This document shows, piece by piece, positions 50,429-51,169 of a stretch of 64,000 nt of DNA. The number at the start of each line of letters is the position of its first letter. The first letter of the stretch is position 1. A program made the position numbers and the translations under genes. The notes beneath the pieces are model-generated. The model was given only the letters and a program-made list of their open reading frames with translations, made no database searches and was not told where the DNA came from. Location of the stretch: NCBI RefSeq assembly GCF_003334765.1, contig NZ_QOWT01000012.1. One strand, 5' to 3'. Source of the stretch: Escherichia coli. GTDB lineage: Bacteria > Pseudomonadota > Gammaproteobacteria > Enterobacterales > Enterobacteriaceae.

Positions 50429-51169
50429 ATGTTAGATCAAGTATGCCAGCTTGCACGGAATGCAGGCGATGCCATTATGCAGGTCTACGACGGGACGAAA
50501 CCGATGGACGTCGTCAGCAAAGCGGACAATTCTCCGGTAACGGCAGCGGATATTGCCGCTCACACCGTTATCATGGACGGTTTACGTACGCTGACACCGG
50601 ATATTCCGGTCCTTTCTGAAGAAGATCCTCCCGGTTGGGAAGTCCGTCAGCACTGGCAGCGTTACTGGCTGGTAGACCCGCTGGATGGTACTAAAGAGTT
50701 TATTAAACGTAATGGCGAATTCACCGTTAACATTGCGCTCATTGACCATGGCAAACCGATTTTAGGTGTGGTGTATGCGCCGGTAATGAACATAATGTAC
50801 AGCGCGGCAGAAGGCAAGGCCTGGAAAGAAGAGTGCGGTGTGCGCAAGCAGATTCAGGTCCGCGATGCGCGCCCGCCGCTGGTGGTTATCAGCCGTTCCC
50901 ATGCAGATGCGGAGCTGAAAGAGTATCTGCAACAGCTTGGCGAACATCAGACCACGTCCATCGGCTCTTCGCTGAAATTCTGCCTGGTGGCGGAAGGGCA
51001 GGCGCAGCTGTACCCGCGCTTCGGACCAACGAATATTTGGGATACCGCCGCTGGTCATGCTGTGGCTGCAGCTGCCGGAGCGCACGTTCATGACTGGCAG
51101 GGTAAACCGCTGGATTACACTCCGCGCGAGTCGTTCCTGAATCCGGGATTCAGAGTGTCTATTTATTAA
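50429..51169 (+). CDS. cysQ: 3'(2'),5'-bisphosphate nucleotidase CysQ
   Basis: 246-aa ORF with inositol-monophosphatase-family motifs ([18 protein letters not shown]). Confidence 0.95.

Follow-up and report, generated by a model that had tools for sequence, protein, structure and literature searches.

The cysQ-ytfJ junction of an Escherichia coli strain as the very probably empty and ancestral state of a segregating ytfI islet

The 64,000-nt stretch of Escherichia coli DNA analyzed here (the window; RefSeq assembly GCF_003334765.1, contig NZ_QOWT01000012.1) very probably carries the empty, ancestral form of the junction between the convergent genes cysQ and ytfJ, a site at which an islet containing ytfI segregates as a presence/absence polymorphism. 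The features at this junction, in window coordinates, are the following:
50429..51169, + strand: cysQ, 3'(2'),5'-bisphosphate nucleotidase, 246 aa, with a TAA stop at 51167-51169 (ORF call)
51137..51153, + strand: small hairpin CTGAATCCGGGATTCAG within the last cysQ codons, with AT-rich sequence after it
51159..51716, - strand: ytfJ, YtfJ-family protein, 185 aa, ending in ...DLLHKLINK (ORF call)
51159..51169: overlap of the convergent cysQ and ytfJ stops, 11 nt, CTATTTATTAA
51165-51174: palindrome of 10 nt at the overlap, ATTAATTAAT
51169..51172: empty site of the ytfI islet, 2 nt in the window (51170-51171) vs 1222 bp in K-12

The name of cysQ is taken from the RefSeq annotation of identical DNA, and Pfam families are recorded on the homologues of both genes (PF00459, Inositol_P, for cysQ and PF09695 for ytfJ); the N-terminus of YtfJ contains a hydrophobic stretch that resembles a signal peptide. 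The ytfJ stop is a TAG on the minus strand, the complement of CTA at 51159-51161, and the window gene has the long, ancestral form of 185 aa, whereas islet-bearing strains encode 184 aa with the end ...LLQKLLK. No ORF lies between cysQ and ytfJ in the window. The PGAP/RefSeq annotation of E. coli B-RalR, which is 100% identical to the window over 49800-52400, gives cysQ and ytfJ the same 11-nt overlap, and the ORFs and this annotation of identical DNA bear out the preliminary description, in which the two stops overlapped by 11 nt on opposite strands with no gene between them. The junction contains no remnant or scar of the islet and is identical in sequence to the junction of Escherichia sp. 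MOD1-EC7003. The hairpin at 51137..51153 matches a terminator pattern and is a weak terminator candidate; an intrinsic terminator at the window junction was rejected, as the folding energy on the plus strand is no better than that of shuffled sequence (z 0.79), and the minus strand gives a marginal value (z -1.8).

The corresponding locus of K-12 J53 (L001) is organized as follows:
3030-3770: cysQ
3982-4920, + strand: ytfI, 939 nt, 312 aa, annotated as "protein YtfI"
4983-5537, - strand: ytfJ, 184 aa

Alignment of the whole window by blastn to 67.5 kb of K-12 breaks off at position 51169, where the cysQ stop ends, and restarts at 51172, with a gap of 1222 bp on the K-12 side (L001:3771-4992). 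The ytfI gene placed by the preliminary description between cysQ and ytfJ in K-12 is thus found there, and the alignment of this interval, which had been proposed as a check, reveals no cysQ/ytfJ overlap in K-12, where the two stops are instead separated by a spacer of 1212 nt. The layout of O157:H7 is the same (cysQ-ytfI-ytfJ), and its spacer is also 1212 nt. The GC content of the K-12 islet is 34.6% vs 54.5% for cysQ and 51.4% for ytfJ, and the islet consists of a strong hairpin directly 3' of the cysQ stop (GATGGCAGAA...TTCTGCCATC, -22.5 kcal/mol, z -5.5), an AT-rich leader of ~165 nt, ytfI as its sole ORF, and another hairpin with a T-run after it (TTCCCCTATC...GATAGGGGAA AATTATTTTT, z -3.3). 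With its departure in GC content and its patchy distribution, the K-12 ytfI segment has the marks of a horizontally acquired AT-rich islet. Integrase genes, IS elements, and tRNA genes do not accompany the islet, and its ends show no convincing terminal repeats, the best terminal inverted pair being 22 nt long with 73% complementarity; it lacks the features of a mobile element of the integrase, IS, or MITE type, having no recombinase or transposase gene, no convincing terminal inverted repeats, and no clear target-site duplication. The motif TATTT recurs at both islet junctions (left cTATTTAcTAA, right tTATTTGAGCAAC; empty sites CTATTTATTGAGCAAC), which may reflect a short target duplication of 5-6 nt or chance in AT-rich sequence. 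A search for ytfI on phages gave no matches, and the only four "plasmid" matches were set aside, the records being 0.66-4.9 Mb in size and representing chromosomes or megareplicons filed as plasmids.

The frequency of both states was determined by megablast of window positions 50400-51800 against 5426 complete E. coli genomes, 5421 of which gave a match. The two genes are contiguous in one place in 3801 of the 5426 genomes, many of them 100% identical to the window, and in the remaining matching genomes the match is broken in two at base 770 of the query (window position 51169). The K-12 segment was found by megablast in 1623 of the 5426 genomes (near full length in 1604), and its carriers include K-12 derivatives, O157:H7, O55:H7, O145:H28, and ETEC strains; Shigella flexneri is among the source names in the protein search for YtfI. 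The islet is a common presence/absence polymorphism, with ~30% of genomes occupied and ~70% empty. The earlier suggestion that this strain lacks a K-12-specific insertion is consequently correct in one half, as the 1222 bp are absent here, and wrong in the other, as the segment occurs in these 1623 genomes and in a non-coli Escherichia (L003). The contiguous arrangement of cysQ and ytfJ is not due to chance, since it is found in this large majority of genomes (3801/5426) and the same 11-nt overlap recurs in 24 species loci at dS >1. Likewise, a collapse or artefact of assembly as the source of the contiguous window junction has a negligible probability and is refuted by the occurrence of the same contiguous sequence in the 3801 independently finished genomes and in other species. 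Rearranged forms of the islet also occur: variant H68 has an IS1 inserted inside the islet, and ETEC1738 (L083, 4001-5294) has the first 164 bp of the islet left, followed by IS1 and then by a ytfJ pseudogene without its C-terminus. A further islet-bearing variant, H79 (93.7% identity), was left out because its assembly has frameshifts in every gene of the stretch.

The polarity of the two states can be read from related species. A CysQ scan of species-representative genomes yielded 80 loci, none of them from Salmonella, and the true stop codons were located in the 79 loci holding both cysQ and ytfJ. The stops overlap in 53 of these 79 species loci, which are distributed as follows:
11-nt overlap, 24 loci: Escherichia sp. 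E1V33, E. whittamii, MOD1-EC7003, L008, most Citrobacter, and the K. oxytoca group
7-nt overlap, 27 loci: Enterobacter, Lelliottia, Pluralibacter, and others
4-nt overlap, 2 loci: Trabulsiella
Spacer of 27-138 nt, 21 loci: Pantoea, Erwinia, and relatives (Erwiniaceae)
Insert of 1.2-2.1 kb, 5 loci: ytfI (L003) and four other cargos

The 11-nt overlap is kept across Escherichia, Citrobacter, and the K. oxytoca group at a synonymous divergence >1. In the empty Escherichia outgroups, three of which are non-coli, YtfJ has 185 aa and ends in HKLLNK or HKLINK, and the ending HKLLSK is also found among the outgroups. E. whittamii, E1V33, MOD1-EC7003, L008, and Citrobacter lack the islet, and one divergent Escherichia lineage, L003, carries it. 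Because the outgroups show overlapping stops together with a 185-aa YtfJ, the 11-nt overlap is the ancestral condition and the K-12 arrangement a derived one. The YtfJ tail ...DLLQKLLK, one codon shorter, is found in five out of five sampled ytfI-bearing haplotypes (K-12, O157, MLI109, L086, and L003), and the left hairpin is likewise common to all five, including the variant of 68% identity; the shared QKLLK tail and left hairpin suggest that the islet derives from a single insertion event.

The opposite polarity, in which ytfI was formerly present in the lineage of the window and a precise deletion created the overlap secondarily, is very unlikely. The islet is old enough for such a history, with a dS between E. 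coli and a divergent Escherichia as high as that of its flanks, so that an E. coli ancestor could have carried ytfI; however, the empty site corresponds base for base to the ancestral architecture seen in E. whittamii, E1V33, MOD1-EC7003, Citrobacter, and the K. oxytoca group, and a deletion would need to restore not only the overlap but also the lost ytfJ codon and its H residue, which makes a precise deletion improbable. Deletions do happen at the locus, as seen in ETEC1738 with its 164 bp of islet and IS1, but this sole observed case is imprecise and destroys the 3' end of ytfJ, whereas the window has no islet scar.

Under the preferred reading of the window as the empty, ancestral junction, the age and spread of the islet can be considered from the divergence of its alleles. 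Between K-12 and L003, dS is 0.70 for ytfI, 0.66 for cysQ, and 0.59 for ytfJ, and because the ytfI value matches those of the flanking genes, the islet must be old and has diverged at the pace of its flanks. The L003 genome (E. coli SCPM-O-B-8794), which carries the most divergent ytfI allele (68% identity), is not E. coli-like, with dS of 0.56-0.66 to E. coli at cysQ, ytfJ, and ytfL, and it is a mosaic, its dS to E. whittamii/E1V33 being 0.13-0.15 at ytfL vs 0.73-0.75 at cysQ. The history of the islet is mosaic and not simply vertical. The divergence per kb between the window and K-12 is 0-0.1% over positions 1-19000 and 1-5% over positions 19000-64000, and from this jump and the mosaicism of L003, we infer that whole haplotypes have been transferred by homologous recombination; a dedicated mobility mechanism for the islet probably does not exist. 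In the history proposed here, the ancestral state in Enterobacteriaceae is one in which the ends of cysQ and ytfJ overlap, by 11 nt in Escherichia. One event in some Escherichia ancestor would then have placed ~1.2 kb of foreign, AT-rich DNA directly after the cysQ stop, parting the two stop codons and leaving ytfJ one codon shorter, its tail changed from HKL[I/L]NK to QKLLK. Since then, the occupied haplotype would have diverged together with its flanks, with movement between lineages most likely occurring by homologous recombination of the flanks. The window strain has the empty allele, inside a haplotype of at least 45 kb that differs from K-12 by 1-5%.

The jump in divergence lies at ~19000 in the window and looks like a recombination boundary; the differences from K-12 at ytfI, at chpSB, and in a 9.4-kb segment are all located in the divergent part. 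The 9.4-kb segment (window 31932-41370, rplI-ytfB) has no K-12 counterpart, and K-12 has yjfZ and a 5'-truncated TetR pseudogene in this position. The segment begins with the genes of a TRAP transporter:
31990-32961: DctP
33014-34315: DctM
34358-34858: small permease

It also encodes an FAD-dependent oxidoreductase, a CoA-transferase, three further ORFs, and an intact TetR regulator (41102-41773); in the homologous region of B-RalR, the three further ORFs are annotated as an enoyl-CoA hydratase, a sugar-phosphate isomerase, and a ketoacyl reductase. In E. coli B-RalR, an MFS transporter takes the place of the TRAP genes of the window, the transporter genes differing at 31940-35095, and the identity of this strain to the window over 35096-42614 is 98.4%. 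At window positions 60836-60963, ~128 bp are found where K-12 has the chpS-chpB toxin-antitoxin module (~635 bp, ytfP-ppa), and B-RalR likewise has no gene annotated between ytfP and ppa. Two intergenic elements of 129 nt (14444-14572 and 53829-53957), which are inverted, 39 kb apart, and identical at 104 of 129 bases, both contain REP-like GCCGGATGCGGCG motifs and are located, by the K-12 coordinates of their matches, in the rnr-rlmB and paeA-msrA intergenic regions; they probably belong to a known intergenic repeat family.

The gene carried by the islet has no match in Pfam or NCBIfam. Matches of YtfI to Cas6b in PADLOC (E 8e-4, 41 residues) and to phrog_3250 in PHROG (E 1.7e-3) were too weak and too short and were treated as noise. 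A word-indexed search of 5.8 billion proteins returned 17 YtfI clusters, every source-named one of which is from E. coli or Shigella, and a profile search of 1.84 billion representatives for remote homologues yielded only fragments of YtfI and one protein of 1441 aa, which matched via 13 copies of a TPR-like repeat and was judged to be a compositional or repeat artefact. The AlphaFold2 model of YtfI, built from a six-sequence alignment, is of low confidence (pLDDT 53, pTM 0.39). Unconstrained DNA accumulates stops and has a dN/dS of about 1. The ytfI frame (300-312 codons) is intact in alleles of 98, 95, 89, 76, and 68% identity, with dN/dS of 0.12-0.39 (Nei-Gojobori) at dS up to 0.70-0.85; the flanking genes have dN/dS of 0.014-0.15. 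Since the frame is kept and nonsynonymous changes are depleted across diverged alleles, we conclude that ytfI is a genuine, fast-evolving orphan gene confined to Escherichia/Shigella. The gene does show some decay: one protein cluster of 729 members (P0007) has a form of YtfI of 251 aa that starts at K-12 residue 53 (MREFF...), which suggests disruption of the N-terminal part of YtfI in a considerable number of E. coli strains.

The preliminary description had offered, as the other possibility, that the K-12 ORF is a questionable call. In that case, ytfI would be a mis-called ORF in a non-coding spacer and nothing functional would be missing from the window, an explanation whose probability is remote. 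It would fit a gene that has no Pfam or NCBIfam family and no homologue outside Escherichia/Shigella, a predicted structure with a pLDDT of 53, and a cluster of 729 members that starts at residue 53, and the gene is AT-rich and bound by H-NS (PMC4720273), so that its expression is probably poor. These points are outweighed by the frame, intact at 68-98% identity with dN/dS of 0.12-0.39 at dS of 0.7-0.85, and by the leader of its own and the hairpin and T-run terminator with which ytfI is equipped; moreover, the difference does not lie in annotation, as the 1.2 kb of DNA itself is physically missing from the window. YtfI could also be an orphan that truly arose within this lineage and has an undiscovered function. 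No functional study of ytfI was found among the papers that mention it; an overexpression screen of the ASKA collection, which reported resistance to HOCl, listed ytfI as one of 23 clones able to grow at threefold the wild-type NaOCl MIC (3 mM) and called it uncharacterised (PMC8228696).

Different genes occupy the cysQ/ytfJ junction in four further lineages:
Escherichia albertii NBRC 107761 (L007 4742-6245): insert of 1.5 kb with a hairpin after cysQ and a 385-aa ORF at 4852-6009, - strand
Citrobacter youngae ATCC 29220 (L016 4742-6861): insert of 2.1 kb with a radical-SAM enzyme at 4789-5841, - strand, and a 298-aa membrane protein at 5848-6744, - strand
Intestinirhabdus alba (L080 4745-6825): polytopic membrane protein of 470 aa
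Erwinia MAG (L079 4748-6848): protein of 634 aa

The E. albertii ORF, which has only weak PHROG matches, looks rich in pentapeptide repeats, the I. alba protein looks like a solute symporter, and the Erwinia protein looks like a methyl-accepting chemotaxis protein. The radical-SAM assignment in C. youngae, obtained from PHROG radical-SAM families, is the sole label of a cargo resting on a tool result; together with the membrane protein, which has a C-terminus rich in Cys, Gly, and Ser, the enzyme looks like a peptide-modification pair. In the C. youngae insert, ~45 bp of the ytfJ 3' end are directly duplicated, with one copy on each side. These cases hint that small inserts are tolerated at, or attracted to, the junction. 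Under a stronger but unlikely reading of the five unrelated cargos in five lineages, small cargo cassettes without a recombinase would land repeatedly at this junction across Enterobacterales, and the process could be one in which the ends of genes are duplicated where convergent stops overlap.

For the annotation of E. coli genomes, the absence of ytfI from a strain is no annotation error, as ~70% of E. coli are without it, and the gene may merit functional study in its own right. The segment carrying ytfI has been reported to nucleate H-NS binding in ChAP-seq, with spreading to cpdB, cysQ, ytfJ, and ytfK (Higashi et al., 2016; PMC4720273). Because the islet nucleates this spreading to its neighbors, its presence or absence may cause slight differences between strains in the regulation of cysQ and ytfJ.

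As a convergent pair with overlapping stops in a compact genome, cysQ/ytfJ is like others of its kind, with an overlap of 4-11 nt, no intergenic terminator, and conservation across genera of Enterobacteriaceae, and there is nothing unusual about it. No function is indicated for the overlap itself, since its length shifts among genera (11, 7, and 4 nt) and a spacer takes its place in Erwiniaceae. With small, H-NS-silenced AT-rich islets, the ytfI islet shares a low GC content (35% vs 52%), bounding hairpins, an orphan cargo, variable presence, and reported H-NS binding; unlike such islets, it has no detectable donor, vector, or mobility gene, and its site is a pair of overlapping convergent stops, not a tRNA gene or an intergenic spacer. 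The closest known case is the K-12 ytfI (b4215) segment itself, which Higashi et al. (2016, PLoS Genet; PMC4720273, S10 Fig) described as a specific insertion of K-12 that strains SE11 and SE15 lack. The locus and the polymorphism are the same, and the window represents another strain of the "absent" type, so that the feature is ordinary accessory-genome variation of a kind already published. In that study, the segment was used only to illustrate the spreading of H-NS onto neighboring genes; the present analysis goes beyond it in the ~30% frequency of the islet, the polarity obtained from outgroups, the anatomy of the junction, the evidence that ytfI is under selection, and the demonstration that the islet is not specific to K-12.
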